A DNA stretch of 64,000 bases from Polaromonas sp. (GTDB taxonomy: Bacteria > Pseudomonadota > Gammaproteobacteria > Burkholderiales > Burkholderiaceae_C): NCBI RefSeq assembly GCF_012927455.1, contig NZ_JABBPE010000003.1, positions 18,970 to 82,969 on the forward strand, given 5' to 3'. The notes beneath the pieces were generated by a model, which saw nothing but the letters and a program-made list of their open reading frames with translations, ran no database searches and was not told the origin of the DNA. Shown one piece after another: positions 17,465 to 57,463 of the stretch. Both the position numbers and the translations under genes were made by a program. Position 1 is the stretch's first letter, and every line of letters begins with the position of its first letter.

Positions 17465-20400
17465 ATGACCGACCTGTCCGCCGAATACAAAGCGCTCGCC
17501 AATTACCGCCCCACGCACAAGGTGCGTTTTGTCACGGCCGCCTCGCTGTTCGACGGACACGATGCCGCCATCAACATCATGCGGCGCATTTTGCAGGGCA
17601 TGGGCGCCGAGGTGATTCACCTGGGCCACAACCGCAGCGTCGAAGAGGTGGTGACGGCCGCCCTGCAGGAAGACGCGCAGGGCATCGCCATCAGCTCCTA
17701 CCAGGGTGGCCATGTCGAGTACTTCAAATACATGGTCGACTTGCTGAAAAGCCGCGGCGGCGAGCATATCCAGGTCTTTGGCGGCGGCGGCGGCGTGATT
17801 GTGGGCCCGGAAATCCGCGAGCTGCAGGCCTACGGCGTGGCGCGCATTTTCAGCCCCGAGGACGGCCAGAAGATGGGCCTGGCCGGCATGATTGGCGAAA
17901 TGGTGATGCGCTGCGACCAGGACCTGACCGGCTTTGCGCCGACCGACGTGCAAGCCATCGAAGGCCATGGCGAAATGGCCTGGCGGGCGCTCGCGCAACT
18001 CATCACTGCGCTTGAAAACGAGAAGGCTAATGAGGCTGTAGTCCAAGCGGTACGGGCGCAAGCTGCTATCAAAAAGATACCAGTTTTGGGCATCACGGGC
18101 ACCGGTGGCGCCGGCAAGTCATCGCTCACCGACGAGCTGATCCGCCGGCTGCGGCTGGACCAGAACGACCAGTTGCGCATCGCCATCATCAGCATAGACC
18201 CGTCGCGCCGCAAGAGCGGCGGCGCCCTGCTGGGCGACCGCATCCGCATGAACGCCATCAATCCCTGGAATTCACAGGCCCCCACGCTTGTCGCTTCGCG
18301 TGCCGCGCTGCCCCCCGAGGGGGCTGAACTTGCTTGGGGCGGCCCGGCGCTGCGTTCGTTGCCACCCGGCGGCCAACGTGTTTTCATGCGCTCACTCGCC
18401 ACGCGCGACTTCGGCTCGGAAATCAGCCCGGCCTTGCCCGACGTGATTGCCGCCTGCAAGGCCGCCGGCTTCGACCTGATCGTGGTTGAAACCTCCGGCA
18501 TTGGGCAGGGCGACGCCGCCATCGTGCCGCATGTCGATGTGCCGATGTATGTGATGACGCCGGAGTTCGGCGCCGCCAGCCAGCTGGAAAAAATCGACAT
18601 GCTGGACTTTGCCGAGTTCATTGCCATCAACAAGTTTGACCGCAAGGGCTCGCTCGATGCGCTGCGTGATGTGGCAAAACAGGTGCAGCGCAACAAGGAA
18701 GCCTGGAGCACGCCGGCCGATCAGATGCCGGTGTTTGGCACCATGGCCGCGCGCTTTAACGACGACGGTGTGACAGCGCTGTACCAGGCGCTCAAGCCCC
18801 GCCTGGCCGCGCTCGGCCTGCATTTTGAGGACGGCATACTGCCCGAGGTCAAGGTGCGCCACAGCACCAACCAGACCCCCGTGGTGCCGGCGGCCCGCAC
18901 GCGCTACCTGGCCGAAATTACCGATACCGTGCGCGGCTACAAGAAACGCGGCCACGAGCAAGCCACGCTGGCCCGCGAAATCCAGCAGTTGCGCGCCGCC
19001 GCCGCCATGCTGACCGCGAGCAAGCCCGACAAGGCCCGAGCCGCCGAGGCCGCCATCGACCTGGCGGTGCAGCGCGAGCAAATTCAGGAGCCGTCTGCTA
19101 AAAAACTGCTGGCCCAGTGGCCGTTGATGCAGAAAGCTTATGCCGGCGACGAATACGTGGTGAAGATCCGCGACAAGGAAATCCGCACGGCGCTGACCAC
19201 CAAATCACTTTCCGGCACCACCATTCGCAAGGTTTGCCTGCCCAAATACGAAGACCACGGTGAAATCCTCAAGTGGCTGATTCTGGACAATGTGCCCGGC
19301 AGCTACCCCTACACAGCCGGAACCTTTGCCTTCAAGCGCGAGGGCGAAGACCCGACCCGCATGTTCGCCGGCGAAGGCGACCCGTTTCGCACCAACACGC
19401 GCTTCAAGTTGCTGAGCGACGGCATGGCCGCGAAGCGCCTGTCCACCGCGTTTGACTCGGTCACGCTGTATGGCAACGACCCGCATGTGCGGCCTGACAT
19501 TTACGGCAAGGTCGGCAATTCGGGCGTGTCGATTGCCACGCTGGACGACATGAAGGTGCTGTACGGCGGCTTTGACCTGTGCAGCCCGACCACCAGCGTG
19601 TCCATGACCATCAACGGCCCGGCACCGAGCATTCTGGCCATGTTCATGAACACCGCCATCGACCAGAACCTGGAAAAATTCAAGGCCGACAACGGCCGCG
19701 AAGCCACCGATACGGAAGCCCTGAAGATCCGGGAATGGGTGCTGGAGAACGTGCGCGGCACGGTGCAGGCCGACATCCTGAAAGAAGACCAGGGCCAAAA
19801 CACCTGCATCTTCTCGACCGAGTTCAGCCTGAAAGTGATGGGCGACATCGCCCAGTACTTCGTGCACAACCGGGTGCGCAACTTCTACAGCGTCTCAATC
19901 AGCGGCTACCACATCGCCGAAGCCGGCGCCAACCCGATCAGCCAGCTGGCCTTCACGCTGTCCAACGGCTTTACCTTTGTGGAAGCCTACCTGGCGCGCG
20001 GCATGCACATCGACGACTTCGCGCCCAACCTGTCCTTTTTCTTCAGCAATGGCATGGACCCCGAATACACCGTGATGGGCCGCGTGGCGCGCCGCATCTG
20101 GGCCGTCGCCATGAAAGAGAAATACGGCGCCAACGAACGCAGCCAGAAGCTGAAATACCACATCCAGACCTCAGGCCGCAGCCTGCACGCGCAGGAAATC
20201 CAGTTCAACGACATCCGCACCACGCTGCAGGCGTTGATCGCGATTTACGACAACTGCAATTCGCTGCACACCAACGCCTTTGACGAAGCCATCACCACGC
20301 CGACCGAAGACTCGGTGCGCCGCGCCATGGCGATCCAGCTCATCATCAACCGCGAATGGGGCCTGGCGAAAAACGAAAATCCGTCACAGGGCGCTTTCAT

Positions 20401-20854
20401 CATCGAGGAGCTGACCGAACTGGTCGAAGAAGCCGTGCTGATCGAATTCCAGAACATCGCCGATCGCGGCGGCGTGCTGGGCGCGATGGAAACCGGCTAC
20501 CAGCGCGGTCGTATCCAGGACGAATCGATGCATTACGAAATGCTCAAGCACACCGGCGAGCTGCCCATCATCGGCGTCAACACCTTCCGTAACCCGCATG
20601 GCGACGCGGTTCACGACAAGCTGGAACTGGCGCGCTCGACTGATGAAGAAAAGCAGAGCCAGCTGACGCGGCTGGCCGACTTCCAGCAGCGCCACGCCAA
20701 AGAGTCACCGGCGATGCTCAAACGCCTGCAGACGGCGGTGATCGAGAACAACAACGTGTTCGAAGTGCTGATGGACGCGGTGCGCGTCTGCTCGTTGGGG
20801 CAGATCACCAACGCGCTGTTTGAAGTGGGCGGGCAGTACCGCCGCAATATGTAA
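17465..20854 (+). CDS. icmF: Fused isobutyryl-CoA mutase / MeaB-like GTPase
   Basis: B12-binding [10 protein letters not shown]-loop [36 protein letters not shown], and mutase barrel motifs [13 protein letters not shown] and [16 protein letters not shown] before ATG 17465. Confidence 0.95.
18032..18081 (-). repeat. GCTAT-N7-ATAGC repeat copy inside the icmF reading frame
   Basis: Reverse complement reads GGTAT-CTTTTTG-ATAGC-AGCTTGCGCCCGTACCGCTTGGACTACAGCCTC, matching the intergenic copies. Encodes [16 protein letters not shown] just before the P-loop. Confidence 0.8.
18278..18375 (+). repeat. GC-rich palindromic element inserted in frame in icmF
   Basis: CCCCCACGCTTGTCGCTTCGCG...GCCCCCCGAGGGGGC...GCTTGGGGCGGCCCGGCGCTGCG; perfect hairpin GCCCCC-CGA-GGGGGC. 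Encodes [30 protein letters not shown] between MNAINPW and [10 protein letters not shown]. Confidence 0.65.
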
Positions 20855-23002: not shown

Positions 23003-23052
23003 GGACGCAATCGTCGCATATTGCACGGCTGGTTTTTTATTGCCTCTAAAGC

Positions 23053-23100
23053 GCTACTGTTTTAATAGCTGCTTGCGCCTGTATTTATTGGGCTAGACCC
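23053..23100 (+). repeat. GCTAT-N7-ATAGC repeat, copy 4
   Basis: GCTAC-TGTTTTA-ATAGC-TGCTTGCGCCTGTATTTATTGGGCTAGACCC. Confidence 0.85.
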
Positions 23101-23290
23101 ATATTTCATTACTTATTTTGCGTTCAGACGGTCGGCTGGCCAGCCAGTGTTATGCCTTACATCCGCTTGCATGACCTGACCAAATGGCGCACTCTTTACC
23201 GGCGCTTAGCAGCCCCACCCGCCGGCTGGCCCGTTATCAGGCTTAGTGCCTCATCAAATGCGGCATGCAACACAGGAAGTGAGCGACCAC

Positions 23291-25738
23291 ATGACAACAT
23301 CCCGCATTGAATCCCGCACTGTTTTGGCAAGCCCTGGTTTTCGGTTTCTCCCGCGTTTTATGGGGAATTTGCTGCTGTTCGCCGCCCCGTTGCTGCTGTC
23401 GCTGGCAGCGCTGCCCTCCGTGGCATCGGCGCAGAACACCACGCAGCAAGGCGCGCCGCTAGACCCCCCGGGCCGCGTCGGCCGGCTCAGCCTGACCGAA
23501 GGGGCCGTGAGCCTGGCGCCGGCCGACCGCGACGGGCGGCCCGGCAACGATGCATGGACCCCCGCGTCGCTGAACAGGCCCCTGACCAGCGGCGACAAAT
23601 TGTGGACCGGCCCCCGCGCCCGCTCGGAACTGCACATCGGCTCAACCGCGGTACGCATGAGCGAGCAGACCAGCCTGGATTTACTGGCCCTGGACGACGA
23701 CGTGACCCAGCTGCGCCTGGCGCAGGGCAGCCTCAAGCTGCGCGTGCGCACCTTGTTTGAAGGCCAGCGCCTGGAAGTCAACACGCCCAACCTGGCTTTC
23801 GTCATTACCCAGCCTGGCGACTACCGCCTCGACGTCAACCCCGCCAGCGACGTCACCCGAGTGGTGGCGCAGTCGGGTGGCGGCGTGATTTATGGCGACA
23901 ACGGCGCGCGGGTAGAGCTGGGCAGCCAGCAACAGGCCAATTACAGCGGCACGCAACTGACACCCGCCGCACTGGGCGCCGCGCAACAAGACGGCTTTGA
24001 CGCCTGGGCCACGGCGCGCGACCGGCGTGAGGACCGGTCGGTGTCGGCGCGCTATGTGCCACGCGAAACCGTCGGCTACCAGCAACTCGACAACTACGGC
24101 GACTGGAGTCAGGATCCGACCTATGGCGCGGTCTGGCAGCCGCGCGCCGTACCGGCCAACTGGGCGCCCTACCGGGCCGGCCACTGGAGCTGGATAGCGC
24201 CCTGGGGCTGGACCTGGGTGGACGACGCGCCCTGGGGCTTTGCCCCGTTTCACTACGGCCGCTGGGCCCAGATCGGCCCGCGCTGGGCCTGGGTGCCGGG
24301 GCGCATGGCAGCGCAACCGGTCTACGCTCCGGCGCTGGTCGCCTTTGTCGGCGGCAGCAGCGGCGGCGTGAACTGGAACATCTCGATCGGCTCGGGCGGC
24401 CAAGCGCGGCCCGGCCTGGGCTGGTTCCCGCTGGCACCGGGCGAGGCCTACCGTCCGGCTTACCGAGCCAGTCCGCGCTACGTGACTCAGGTCAACCAGA
24501 ACATCGTGGTCAACAACACGGTGAACGTGACTAACATCTACCGCTACCAGCGCCAGCCCGCCGCCGTCACGGCGGCCAGCCGGGAAGACTTTGTGCGTGG
24601 CCGGCCTCTGCGTGGCAGCCAGCAGGTGCTGAGCGCCATCGACTTGAACCGCGCCCAAGTTGTGCGCGACCACAGCGCGCTGCCGCAGCGCCCTGAACGC
24701 AACGAGCGCGAACGGCCAAGGTCTGTTGCAGCCGCCGCCCTGCCACCTGCCGCGCTGGCCGCACGGCCTGTCGTGGGCAGTCGTGACGAGCGCCGCCAAG
24801 AAAGGCGCGATGACAGGCGGCCAGATGAAAACCGCGCTGAAAAACGCGATATGGGCCAGCCCGGTCGTATCGACAATCGTTTGAACGGCGCTGATGACGC
24901 GCGCCGCGCTGGCCGGCCCGACAACAGGGAGCGCAATGGCCGCACCCTGCCGCCCGTGTCTGCGCCGCCAGCCGCCGTCGGACTTCTGGGCGCGCAGCCA
25001 CCTGTCACCAAGCCGATGCCGGTCGCGCCGCCGGGCGCGCGTCCAGCCCAGTCGCCGCCTATTGACCGCACCGCCCAGGAAGCCGAACAACGGGCCAGGC
25101 GCGAGCAGCAGCGTCAGCAACGTGACGTAGACCGGAAGCAAAACGTCCAGCGCTCGCCAACTGAAGCATCGCCGGGGCAGCGCGCCATGCGTGAGCAGCC
25201 GCAGAAAAACGGCAACGCCCCGCCAGCGGCTGTGCAGGCGCCAGCCGCACCGGAGCGTCGTGCGGCAGAGCAGGCGCAGCAACTTGAGCGTGACCAGCAG
25301 CGCCAGCAAACCGAAGCGGCGCAAGGCCAGCGCGCCCAGCGCGAGCAGGTACAAAAGCAGCAGGCATCCGATCAGGCCGCGCTGGCACAGCGACAACAGC
25401 AACGTGCCCAACAAGACCAGCAGGGCCAAGCCCGTCAGCAACAGGCACAACAGCAACTGCGTGACCAGCAGCGCCAGCAAAACGAAGCAGCCCAAGGCCA
25501 GCGCACCCAGCGTGAGCAGGCGCAAAAGCGGCAGGCATCCGATCAGGCCGCGCAAGCACAGCAACAACAGCAACGTGCCCAACAAGACCAGCAACGCCAA
25601 GCCCGCGAACAGCCGCAACCGCCGCCACAGGAGCGGCAAAGGGCACCAGACCCGGAACGGCAGAAAAAGCGCCGGGCAGACACCGCCAACACAGCGGGCA
25701 ACCCCCAGCCTGATGGCGAGCCCAATCGCAACCGCTAG
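23291..25738 (+). CDS. Exported FecR-like/DUF6600-domain protein with a Pro/Arg/Gln-rich tail
   Basis: Hydrophobic leader, DPPGRVGRLS, FecR-like beta region (RLAQGSLKLRV, YRLDV), Trp-rich WAPYRAGHWSWIAPWGWTWVDDAPWGFAPFHYGRW, low-complexity C-terminus. Confidence 0.78.
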   Translation: MTTSRIESRTVLASPGFRFLPRFMGNLLLFAAPLLLSLAALPSVASAQNTTQQGAPLDPPGRVGRLSLTEGAVSLAPADRDGRPGNDAWTPASLNRPLTSGDKLWTGPRARSELHIGSTAVRMSEQTSLDLLALDDDVTQLRLAQGSLKLRVRTLFEGQRLEVNTPNLAFVITQPGDYRLDVNPASDVTRVVAQSGGGVIYGDNGARVELGSQQQANYSGTQLTPAALGAAQQDGFDAWATARDRREDRSVSARYVPRETVGYQQLDNYGDWSQDPTYGAVWQPRAVPANWAPYRAGHWSWIAPWGWTWVDDAPWGFAPFHYGRWAQIGPRWAWVPGRMAAQPVYAPALVAFVGGSSGGVNWNISIGSGGQARPGLGWFPLAPGEAYRPAYRASPRYVTQVNQNIVVNNTVNVTNIYRYQRQPAAVTAASREDFVRGRPLRGSQQVLSAIDLNRAQVVRDHSALPQRPERNERERPRSVAAAALPPAALAARPVVGSRDERRQERRDDRRPDENRAEKRDMGQPGRIDNRLNGADDARRAGRPDNRERNGRTLPPVSAPPAAVGLLGAQPPVTKPMPVAPPGARPAQSPPIDRTAQEAEQRARREQQRQQRDVDRKQNVQRSPTEASPGQRAMREQPQKNGNAPPAAVQAPAAPERRAAEQAQQLERDQQRQQTEAAQGQRAQREQVQKQQASDQAALAQRQQQRAQQDQQGQARQQQAQQQLRDQQRQQNEAAQGQRTQREQAQKRQASDQAAQAQQQQQRAQQDQQRQAREQPQPPPQERQRAPDPERQKKRRADTANTAGNPQPDGEPNRNR
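25288..25606 (+). repeat. 171-bp (57-aa) tandem duplication in the Gln-rich tail
   Basis: GCGTGACCAGCAGCGCCAGCAAA starts at 25288 and again at 25459; the protein repeats RDQQRQQ.EAAQGQR.QREQ.QK.QASDQAA. Confidence 0.8.
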
Positions 25739-25770
25739 GCCACGTCGCATTTTGGACCCCGCCTTAGTTC

Positions 25771-25820
25771 GCTATGTTTTTTATAGCTGACTGCGCCCGT
25801 AAAACATGGGCTAGAGGCTC
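25771..25820 (+). repeat. GCTAT-N7-ATAGC repeat, copy 5
   Basis: GCTAT-GTTTTTT-ATAGC-TGACTGCGCCCGTAAAACATGGGCTAGAGGCTC. Confidence 0.85.
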
Positions 25821-26218
25821 TTTTTAATCAGAATTTGTACTCAATCAAGTGACGCCCTGACCGGTGTCCCTGAACCGGTGCAGTTCCGGCGCAGTTCCGG
25901 TGCAGTTCATTCCCTCATTGAACGGAAGGCGCAGAACAGGTCATCAGCCGGTTCAGCAACGAGCCGCCGGGCCACTGCCCGCGTTTGACCGCACCGAATC
26001 TGACGGGCTGGCTGGCTGGCTGGCTTTGTCCGTCCGTTCACACCCAAGCCGCAGCTGCTTTGGAGATGGCGCGCCTGGCGCTTAACGCAAAACTACTTAA
26101 GGGTCTTACCCGGTAGCACGGCCCTGCCCCCGTAGCTACGATTGGCATAGCGTTTCACGGCGGTTAGCCTGCGCTTGTAGCGGTGCCCAGCCCGACTCCG
26201 TGAATTCAATCCCATCAC

Positions 26219-27007
<789 letters not shown>

Positions 27008-27067
27008 TGCATAGCGCCCTTACGCTTTTCACTTCATGCAATACGCCGCCCTCCATTGAAGCCTCGC

Positions 27068-48462: not shown

Positions 48463-48521
48463 TTGAAGCCCCTGGTGCTGATCGCTTCGCCGCCACCCCT
48501 GCCATCAAGGCAGCTGTAATT

Positions 48522-48570
48522 GCTATTAATTCAATAGCTGCCTGCGCCCGTCCTGATTGGGCTAGAGCCT
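48522..48570 (+). repeat. GCTAT-N7-ATAGC repeat, copy 7 (between tsdA and ttrB)
   Basis: GCTAT-TAATTCA-ATAGC-TGCCTGCGCCCGTCCTGATTGGGCTAGAGCC. Confidence 0.85.
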
Positions 48571-48601
48571 TATTTGATACATAAATTCGGCTCAAACCCG
48601 G

Positions 48602-50860: not shown

Positions 50861-51087
50861 TTCAAATTCCTGTTTGCTGCAAGTTAGGCCTGAGGGCTTA
50901 CATGCATCCTAGGAGCGAAGGGGTCTTGAAGCTATTGGATGTTTGCGGCGGTCGCCTATACAAAGTTGCCAATTTACACAGAGTGGAATTTGTGGCAGGC
51001 AGTAGCTAGCCATGCAGCTGCGCGCAGGCCTGCGCGCCACAAGACTGCTGAGCGGCTTCCCAGAAGTGGCTCTCCAGCAGAACTTTT

Positions 51088-51136
51088 GCTATGTTTTTCA
51101 TAGCTACTTACGCCCGTATTTATTGGGTTATAGCCA
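51088..51136 (+). repeat. GCTAT-N7-ATAGC repeat, copy 8
   Basis: GCTAT-GTTTTTC-ATAGC-TACTTACGCCCGTATTTATTGGGTTATAGCC. Confidence 0.85.
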
Positions 51137-51299
51137 TTTTTCTTGTAAAAACATGACTTATCGCCCCCCATTGCAAGCGGTCTTTGCAGTTCGTCCCTGT
51201 TTCCGGGCAAAAAGCGCGGCAGTTCTGCGCGCGCTGATTGAAGCCGAACGCCACGCTCCAGGCGTCAAACAAAACCCCCTGACCTCTTTCCGCCAATCC

Positions 51300-52640: not shown

Positions 52641-52721
52641 GAACCAGGGGCCGGTGACCTGCTTGCTGCGGGCACCACCCGCAGCCGGCGGCTCGCCTGG
52701 ATGGACGGCAGCAGTCAATAT

Positions 52722-52769
52722 GCTATGTTTTTTATAGCAATTTGCGCACGTAAGCCCTGGGCTACCGGC
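52722..52769 (+). repeat. GCTAT-N7-ATAGC repeat, copy 9
   Basis: GCTAT-GTTTTTT-ATAGC-AATTTGCGCACGTAAGCCCTGGGCTACCGGC. Confidence 0.85.
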
Positions 52770-52826
52770 TTGAAACACCTCTACTCAAGGGTTTACTCTC
52801 AGTCTCGAAACCAATGTCCCGGGAAG

Positions 52827-57309: not shown

Positions 57310-57393
57310 AACTACTGCAACGCAATGGTCCAAATACCCAGGAAACAGCATTGTTGCCGCAGCATCGGTTGAATTCGGATCTGCCTGTAAATT

Positions 57394-57441
57394 GCTATTT
57401 ATTTTATAGCTGCTTATGCCCGTGTATGTTGGGCCATGGCC
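57394..57441 (+). repeat. GCTAT-N7-ATAGC repeat, copy 11 (between convergent DASS and tcuB)
   Basis: GCTAT-TTATTTT-ATAGC-TGCTTATGCCCGTGTATGTTGGGCCATGGCC. Confidence 0.85.
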
Positions 57442-57463
57442 TTGTTCTGCACCCGATATCGAG

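Follow-up and report, generated by a model that had tools for sequence, protein, structure and literature searches.

The icmF gene of a Polaromonas sp. carries an in-frame copy of a structured DNA repeat beside a switch region of its G-protein domain. The gene lies in a 64,000-nucleotide stretch of contig NZ_JABBPE010000003.1 (the window; all unlabeled coordinates are window positions) and encodes a fusion of isobutyryl-CoA mutase with a MeaB-type GTPase. Positions 18278-18357 are very probably one copy of a non-coding, non-autonomous, GC-rich interspersed repeat of ~80-85 nt that occurs mainly in Comamonadaceae and in other Burkholderiales too, and that would be translated here as an extra loop. 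The copy belongs to a family with a common hairpin structure, is patchily present among icmF alleles, and has counterparts in frame in many genes, where nearly all are read in one of two frames.

The host is a standard IcmF. The open reading frame (ORF) combines the Pfam B12-binding, MeaB, and MM_CoA_mutase domains in one chain, and its product is 88-95% identical to Polaromonas IcmF proteins. The G domain matches 4XC6 with E = 1e-109, and the P-loop, switch I, switch II, switch III, and NKxD (NKFD) motifs are intact. The following features define the site.

17465 to 20854, plus strand: icmF, fused isobutyryl-CoA mutase / MeaB-type GTPase, 1129 residues, reading frame intact
18098 to 18124, plus strand: P-loop GTGGAGKSS, residues 212-220, from the translation and invariant in 42 orthologues
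18197 to 18247, plus strand: putative switch I equivalent, residues 245-261, from invariant columns in the 42 orthologues and correspondence to a MeaB motif
18269 to 18376, plus strand: variable loop of 36 residues between W268 and R305, from the orthologue alignment, 4 residues in most orthologues

Switch I of MeaB spans residues 92-108, and in the active G:G dimer R108 is salt-bridged to D182 in switch III of the other protomer (PMC10481361). A small G:G interface between switch I and the partner switch III likewise forms on IcmF oligomerization (PMC10481361). IcmF residues 245-261 probably correspond to MeaB switch I, and R261 to MeaB R108, as judged by the shared DPS...GD..R motif rather than by alignment.

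The loop starts at N269, directly after MNAINPW and 8 residues past R261, and connects a helix to the strand VFMRS. In most of the best 120 orthologues it consists of 4 residues (SQGQ, SAGP, QQGP, and the like) in a protein of 1097 residues; the window loop is 32 residues longer. IcmF of Cupriavidus metallidurans (4XC6) aligns as ...MNAINH291 / N293IFMRS, which leaves a spacer of 1-2 residues. The same holds for the characterized enzymes among the IcmF / MeaB / MMAA G-protein chaperones (4XC6, 8SSL, 8STA; PMC10481361), and none of the IcmF proteins studied is known to have an insert here. The earlier note on this DNA had described about 30 extra residues in frame in the G domain, within a spacer that normally has a few residues just after switch I, and both statements hold. 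Orthologues that lack the element also differ in loop length, with 4, 9, 14, 15, or 20 residues. A full-length AlphaFold2 model from a 42-sequence alignment is poor overall (mean predicted local distance difference test score, pLDDT, 48.7; predicted template modeling score 0.36). It gives residues 267-303 as coil (pLDDT ~27) between helix 253-265 and strand 306-312, which hints weakly at a floppy loop.

The limits of the element were set with a covariance model, an nhmmer profile, and metagenome contigs. Covariance model R1 was built from 58 copies, the window copy among them, and matches 18277-18362 with 81.9 bits (E = 4e-15). The copy at locus L128 is outside the training set and scores 80.8 bits. 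The nhmmer profile matches 18278-18356 (E = 2.7e-18). Contigs of two sediment metagenomes are ~25-100x as deep over 18281-18354 as over the icmF flanks, and they run into dozens of unrelated adjoining sequences at a left junction of 18277/18278 and a right junction of 18324, 18349, or 18358. Depth and flank ends together fix the element limits and show that the element is highly repeated in such communities. The contig ends and the limits of both models place the end of the repeated part at ~18357, short of the 18278-18375 extent given before. The element and its flanks are organized as follows.

18269 to 18277, plus strand: left flank of the loop, AATTCACAG, encoding N S Q, outside the repeated core, with contig ends at 18277/18278
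18278 to 18357, plus strand: the repeat element in '+' orientation with a type-a 3' module, in frame in the translation, from the covariance model, nhmmer, and metagenome depth
18278 to 18288, plus strand: conserved 5' box GCCCCCACGCT, unpaired in the family structure, with (nearly) invariant columns in 58-60 copies
18290 to 18303, plus strand: hairpin 1, GTCGC-TTC-GCGtGC, whose stem covaries between copies
18310 to 18324, plus strand: hairpin 2, GCCCCC-CGA-GGGGGC, perfect, the family core
18326 to 18357, plus strand: hairpin 3, from covariation, with outer stem GAAC..GC / GC..GTTC and inner stem GGG-GCGG-CCC at 18336-18345
18358 to 18376, plus strand: right flank of the loop, GTTGCCACCCGGCGGCCAA, ending in ..LPPGGQ, unconserved among element copies

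The left flank AATTCACAG recurs in the icmF genes of L001 and L005. Copies elsewhere diverge past hairpin 3 and element-free orthologues vary in loop length; the right flank is probably older loop sequence. Hairpin 2 is the perfect palindrome reported before. Its pattern is unique in the window, where 0.15 occurrences are expected by chance, and a 20-mer around it is unique even at ≤3 mismatches. The 5' box at 18278-18288 is followed by the core GCTGCCCCCCGAGGGGGC at 18307-18324 with the spacing typical of the family. The earlier note took the element for a simple palindrome with outer arms CCCCA.GC/GC.TGGGG. Both arms are present (CCCCACGC at 18280-18287 and GCTTGGGG at 18333-18340), but they are not partners in the family structure because CCCCACGC is part of the unpaired conserved box, GCTTGGGG belongs to the inner stem of hairpin 3, and its variant A is compensated by a T inside that hairpin. 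The element is instead a three-hairpin unit preceded by an unpaired 5' box.

The distribution of the family was determined by scanning one genome per bacterial species for the exact 18-nt core GCTGCCCCCCGAGGGGGC. The core occurs in at least 120 stretches, nearly all from Burkholderiales, which bears out the mention of an intergenic Comamonadaceae repeat in the earlier note. The listed matches include Polaromonas, Rhodoferax, Hydrogenophaga, Ramlibacter, Variovorax, Xenophilus, Achromobacter, and other Burkholderiales. A sample of 142 copies is the basis of the family plan and of the in-gene counts, and these copies have a common order of 5' box, small hairpin, core hairpin, and 3' module. The 5' box GCCCCCACGCT is almost invariant, and hairpin 1 stems differ but stay complementary (CAC/GTG, CGC/GCG, CCCCGC/GCGGGG). 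The 3' module has two forms. In the majority type a, to which the window copy belongs, a hairpin encloses TTGGGGCGGCCCGGC in an outer stem whose sequence is free yet complementary, and this enclosed segment holds a 3-bp stem with a GCGG loop that covaries as GGG/CCC, GAG/CTC, or CGG/CCG. Type b is found in 23 copies and reads GCGCCTGCGGCCCGGCAAAGCCGGTTCCGCGGCCCC.

Covariation between copies establishes the structure. In the 60-copy alignment 90.6% of the cells are paired, compared with 75% in shuffles and ≤56% when the partners are slid, and 238 double-sided changes are seen against 86 expected. In alignment A1 the hairpin 1 pairs 18-35, 19-30, and 21-27 have 17-24 double changes; the outer stem of hairpin 3 has 19-27 per pair, and its inner stem has the compensatory variants GAG/CTC and CGG/CCG. 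The invariance of hairpin 2 across copies is by construction, the core having served as the search pattern; RNAalifold independently recovers hairpins 2 and 3. Apart from a chance microRNA match, Rfam at a permissive threshold (E ≤ 10) returned no family for the window stretch or for seven loci with typical copies. A blastn search of the PLSDB plasmids with the element gave 6 weak matches only. The covariance model found one further copy in ~125 kb of other icmF neighborhoods, and a density of ~1 copy per 60-130 kb is a rough estimate only. At some loci 2-4 copies follow one another as direct repeats every 78-105 nt (L064:2508-2759, L094:2657-2836, L095:2629-2896, L022:5047-5148), and some of these arrays are open in frame throughout.

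The history of the insert was followed in a neighbor-joining tree of 121 IcmF proteins with the loop left out. The nearest relatives of the window allele are P0002, P0003, and P0004, which are 97.9, 97.3, and 96.6% identical to it outside the loop and all have an empty 4-residue site. The insert is therefore not ancestral to Polaromonas IcmF. Protein P0001 (96.9% identical) has an insert reading ...GPPLGKLAPSGGSALHEVKSVGA..., which at the DNA level is the reverse complement of the element with different flanks. Strain JS666 (L003) and L004 also carry the element reversed with different flanks, and the JS666 copy has the type-b module. Both types, '+' and '-', are dispersed over the tree, each appearing at 6 or more places. 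The family is thus multi-copy and the closest IcmF relatives lack the insert, so that neither of the two outcomes named at the outset as fatal to the proposal, a single-copy element or an insertion ancestral to the IcmF of the family, was found.

Several kinds of sequence have entered the same loop. One junction class, W-NSQ|APTL..., contains the window allele, strain OV174 (L001), and others; a second, W-TVTQ|APTL...KNSP..DSGQ, marks another clade, and further variants occur in Ramlibacter and others. Compared with L129, whose 14-residue loop is element-free, L128 has cleanly gained 78 nt, or 26 codons, close to one element length. The loop of L126 (3805-3885) contains an unrelated long hairpin, CCGTTC..CCTGTCGAAGG../..CCTTCGACAGG..GAACGG, encoding the peptide VHPEPVEGRLKASTGSVRT, and that of L127 (3522-3647) contains a third repeat, a 126-nt element rich in C/G runs that adds 42 residues. 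The icmF loop requires at least five separate events, one each for the forward type-a, the reversed type-a, and the reversed type-b element and one for either of the two other repeat families.

In-frame copies are not confined to icmF. Frames spanning a copy from stop to stop gave 118 candidates, a criterion too permissive in GC-rich genomes, and these were filtered by codon-position G+C on both sides of the insert and then by Pfam. Seventeen genes besides icmF have an in-frame copy with Pfam domains flanking the insert, and together with five icmF copies they make up ~15% of the sample. The hosts encode valyl-tRNA synthetase, biotin carboxylase, UvrD, the glycine-cleavage T protein, an APH-type kinase, CobQ, threonine synthase, GlmS, phosphoglucose isomerase, a family III CoA-transferase, a molybdopterin oxidoreductase, RnfC, a UvrA-like protein, an FAD protein, GlnD, a metallo-beta-lactamase-fold protein, and an acyl-CoA dehydrogenase. 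The copy in the CoA-transferase gene (L005:230-315) is reversed and lies 10 kb upstream of an insert-bearing icmF on the same contig. A long DctM ORF in L128 was discarded as a host, being an artefact of scaffold Ns. The idea that such repeats are a general route to changes in protein loops fits these ~17 other genes.

The copies in 15 of the 17 genes and all icmF copies use two frames. The '+0' frame reads APTLxxxxxxLPPEGAxxxxGGP, and the '-1' frame, on the reverse strand, reads GPPQGxxAPSGGSExxxVxSVGA. Stop codons do not explain this restriction. The two used frames have the lowest Arg content (0.10 versus 0.14-0.21), the lowest net charge (+1.8 versus +3.2 to +5.0), and the highest content of Pro, Gly, Ser, Ala, and Thr. 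All frames are mostly open, yet the used pair is the mildest in Arg, charge, and composition, so the simplest reading is selection on the encoded peptide.

Non-genic copies also have a preferred position, which was scored with a rough gene proxy without annotation. Of ~89 such copies, 46 start ~1-11 nt past the stop codon of a co-oriented, coding-like ORF, and the flanking genes are by far most often co-oriented, being arranged ++ in 38 cases, -- in 11, convergently in 6, and divergently in 1. Stop-proximal copies (loci L007-L124) often lie between adjacent ABC-transporter genes with ATGA-type junctions. These copies may act on translation coupling, termination, or mRNA stability. An in-frame ATG, GTG, or TTG directly precedes the 5' box in 24 of 98 copies. 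A mini-ORF that bridges the neighboring genes, beginning at an ATG past the upstream stop codon and terminating where the following gene has its ATG, was considered and set aside as a lead only, given that start frequency and its variable ends.

These observations suggest how the window gene acquired its loop. The element would have entered, or recombined into, icmF of this Polaromonas lineage at the short connector that leads from the helix after switch I to the next β-strand of the G domain. The gene would have stayed open through an added length that is a multiple of three, a mild frame, and a connector that already varied in length. The frame used would yield a weakly charged peptide rich in Pro, Gly, Ala, and Ser, which is most likely disordered in the translated loop. 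The element itself would be a passenger that spreads as DNA. Because no terminal inverted repeats, target duplication, or GTAG/CGTC tag were seen, our best guess is that it moves through a hairpin-recognizing enzyme encoded elsewhere. Genic copies would persist only where the frame is kept, one of the two mild peptides is encoded, and the loop is tolerant, which would explain why the element in either orientation, or other palindromic repeats, are found in the same loop of related strains. We infer that the insert is translated, that the protein tolerates the resulting loop as neutral or nearly so, and that selection rather than targeting made the icmF loop a hot spot. A 119-nt contig from an ice metatranscriptome runs with 1 mismatch from the core into downstream icmF (18309-18427), and the insert seems to stay in the RNA.

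Several points weigh against this account. The window contains a single full copy, and multi-copy status is a property seen across genomes and metagenomes. No sequencing run was found to contain the source genome, the best one sharing 0.46 of the sampled words. Hairpin 3 of the window copy has an imperfect outer stem, and a 120-nt window stretch folded alone as single-sequence DNA is no better than its shuffles (z = +0.95), so the structural case rests on covariation across copies. The AlphaFold2 model is too poor to establish that the loop is exposed, and the metatranscriptome contig could come from contaminating DNA. Neither a transposase nor terminal inverted repeats nor a target duplication could be identified. 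Filled and empty icmF sites were compared at their junctions without revealing hallmarks of MITEs (miniature transposable elements with inverted repeats), and the 5' box has no inverted 3' partner. Mobility is consequently read from distribution only. Finally, the window, L005, and L001 alleles have identical junctions and are only 85.6-86.7% identical as DNA and 90-93% as protein, and L001 (10813-10898) combines the window junctions with a different hairpin-1 module, TCGGCACTGACGTGTCCTC, which simple descent does not explain.

These last two observations bear on how the window class arose. Identical junctions in divergent alleles are more probably due to spread by recombination, or to age with precise losses, than to the same hit happening repeatedly. 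In a sliding comparison of the window allele with other alleles that carry the insert, identity rises to 91-95% around it, a region that overlaps the conserved switch I coding sequence and the constrained element, so that the rise favors neither course. The TCGGCACTGACGTGTCCTC module of OV174 is identical to that of an unrelated intergenic copy (L088:41 region), and hairpin-1 variants are discrete modules common to different loci. The swap suggests that one copy converted another or that the element inserted anew at the same point.

Re-insertion would be expected if the connector were a mutational target whose DNA is recognized by the insertion machinery of the element, so that recurrence reflects targeting and not tolerance. 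A CAG or CAA codon borders the 5' box of every '+' copy in one fixed position and '-' copies adjoin the R305 side, OV174 pairs the window junctions with another module as a fresh insertion at one point would give, and the stop-proximal placement of non-genic copies shows that positional preference elsewhere is strong. Against this, unrelated repeat families also occupy the icmF site, no target motif is common to the site and the usual upstream context (A-A/T-A-T/G-G), and conversion of one dispersed copy by another would account for the module swap just as well. Targeting is possible but improbable on balance, and tolerance by a permissive loop is preferred.

A broader proposal is that the family is adapted to translation as a Comamonadaceae-wide counterpart of the coding palindromes of Rickettsia, with the IcmF connector a true hot spot of insertion and excision that creates reversible strain-level variation in a B12-gating chaperone. 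It draws on the two benign frames, one per strand, the in-frame starts before the box, and the placement of copies near stops and between operon genes. We regard it as doubtful.

Retention instead of gain is less probable still. An insertion that is old and ancestral to a large part of Polaromonas, with 4-residue loops produced by repeated precise excision, would account for junctions of AATTCACAG / element / ..GCGTTCG.TG..GGCGG.CAA in alleles as divergent as those above. Hairpin-dependent single-strand transposition of the IS200/IS605 type excises precisely. Empty sites, however, outnumber filled ones and turn up in all major branches, the closest relatives of the window allele among them, and the more distant Cupriavidus IcmF has no loop at all. 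The reversed copies with different flanks and the other repeat families at the site need separate gains in any case.

Co-option of the insert is about equally improbable. A flexible 36-residue loop kept by selection could tune G-domain dimerization, GTPase activation, or cobalamin loading; the site adjoins switch I, which is part of the small G:G interface with the partner switch III (PMC10481361), the loop has been hit and kept many times in different lineages, and the gene is intact. The peptides found at the site are nevertheless very different (the element in either orientation, two further repeats, and repeat-free loops of 4-20 residues), the closest relatives have no insert, and the occurrence of the element in 17 unrelated enzymes speaks for tolerance rather than a specific role. 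The diversity of tolerated loop contents argues for neutrality, and the location next to the interface would allow a modulating effect; altered cobalamin loading through the insert, as suggested earlier, is pure conjecture. Removal of the extra sequence before the mature protein forms (as an intron, an intein, or by programmed bypass) or an assembly artefact is scarcely credible, for beyond the potential in principle of hairpins to cause bypass or assembly errors nothing was found in its favor, while no Rfam intron or ribozyme matches, 36 residues are far too few for an intein and contain no intein motifs, the independent isolate OV174 and metagenome assemblies (ENA, JGI) have the same insert, and the RNA-derived contig keeps the junction.

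The window contains other repeated sequences. A candidate decayed 5' half-copy of the element at 27016-27053 (plus strand) is borderline (covariance model 12.1 bits, E = 0.71; nhmmer E = 0.13) and lies between the stop of an ABC-ATPase ORF (ORF end 27007) and the next ATG (27069), a family-typical position. D1 is a 59-nt, AT-richer interspersed repeat (TGCTAT..ATAGCTG..GCGCCCGT..TGGGCTA.AGCC) that is unrelated to the three-hairpin element. Its seven copies in the window are listed below.

358 to 416: D1 copy
23048 to 23106: D1 copy
25766 to 25824: D1 copy
48517 to 48575: D1 copy
51083 to 51141: D1 copy
52717 to 52775: D1 copy
57389 to 57447: D1 copy

The earlier note proposed that two different repeats had entered the one G domain. 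The resemblance behind this claim appears real: 18033-18085 matches the reverse complement of D1 at 41 of 52 positions with a score of 30, compared with a maximum of 19 in 400 random window segments. An insertion there is not shown because the segment has no length difference in any of the 120 orthologues and aligns without gaps to Cupriavidus IcmF, and the D1 resemblance is unexplained. A tandem duplication of a 171-nt unit with 86% identity (family D2) lies at 25271-25612.

About one in seven of the sampled copies lies in frame inside a housekeeping gene. Alleles of icmF that are 97-98% identical outside the loop differ by the presence, absence, or orientation of the insert and constitute a natural experiment on how much load a loop beside the switch of a G-protein chaperone can bear, how selection acts on the frame and site of insertions, and how the element moves. 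On the practical side, such inserts account for unusual Pro/Gly-rich stretches in annotated Comamonadaceae proteins and for differences in their length.

The element has features of several known repeat classes. A literature search found no description of such an element in Comamonadaceae. Miniature repeats of the enterobacterial RU/ERIC type and MITEs occur intragenically (PMC2759123, PMC10969869). Like them, the element is a small, mobile-looking repeat that makes in-frame additions to proteins; unlike them, it has no evident terminal inverted repeats or target-site duplication at the icmF junctions.

Repetitive extragenic palindromic (REP) sequences of the GTAG and CGTC classes are found within genes in several phyla, where their ends often supply stop codons (PMC3733652). 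The element resembles REP and BIME sequences in its GC-rich hairpins, its frequent location directly past the stops of co-oriented genes, and its frequent direct arrays (PMC3733652). Some copies lie in ORFs, as do REPs that encode 20-30 residues in genes including DNA-repair genes such as uvrA (PMC3733652). A REP is one hairpin, whereas the element combines three. Inspection of the element consensus and invariant columns by eye, with no formal scan for the tags, showed neither GTAG nor CGTC, and the multi-copy loci inspected contain only direct repeats and no inverted, REPIN-like doublets.

The closest parallel is with the Rickettsia palindromic elements (RPEs; Ogata et al. 2000, 2002), which lie in frame in many unrelated genes (reviewed in PMC10969869 and PMC3733652). 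Both are short, structured, and non-autonomous, occur between genes and in frame in unrelated housekeeping genes, leave the host ORF intact, add a conserved peptide, and have no transposase of their own. RPEs reside in reduced intracellular genomes and RPE-1 is a long palindrome of ~100-150 nt, whereas the element resides in the large genomes of free-living bacteria and comprises three hairpins and an unpaired 5' box in ~80 nt. Translation in both orientations at one site and alternative 3' modules also set it apart from RPEs. To our knowledge no sequence similarity is to be expected between a family of ~75% G+C and elements of AT-rich Rickettsia, and the likeness is one of working, not of homology. 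Coding palindromes and intragenic REPs are thus already known in kind from Rickettsia RPEs and from REPs. The three-hairpin modular build with strong covariation, the one benign frame per strand, and the clustering of five or more separate events in a single enzyme loop are new. Coding palindromic repeats, at first regarded as peculiar to Rickettsia and later seen sporadically as tagged REPs, now include a defined family across free-living bacteria of soil, water, and ice.

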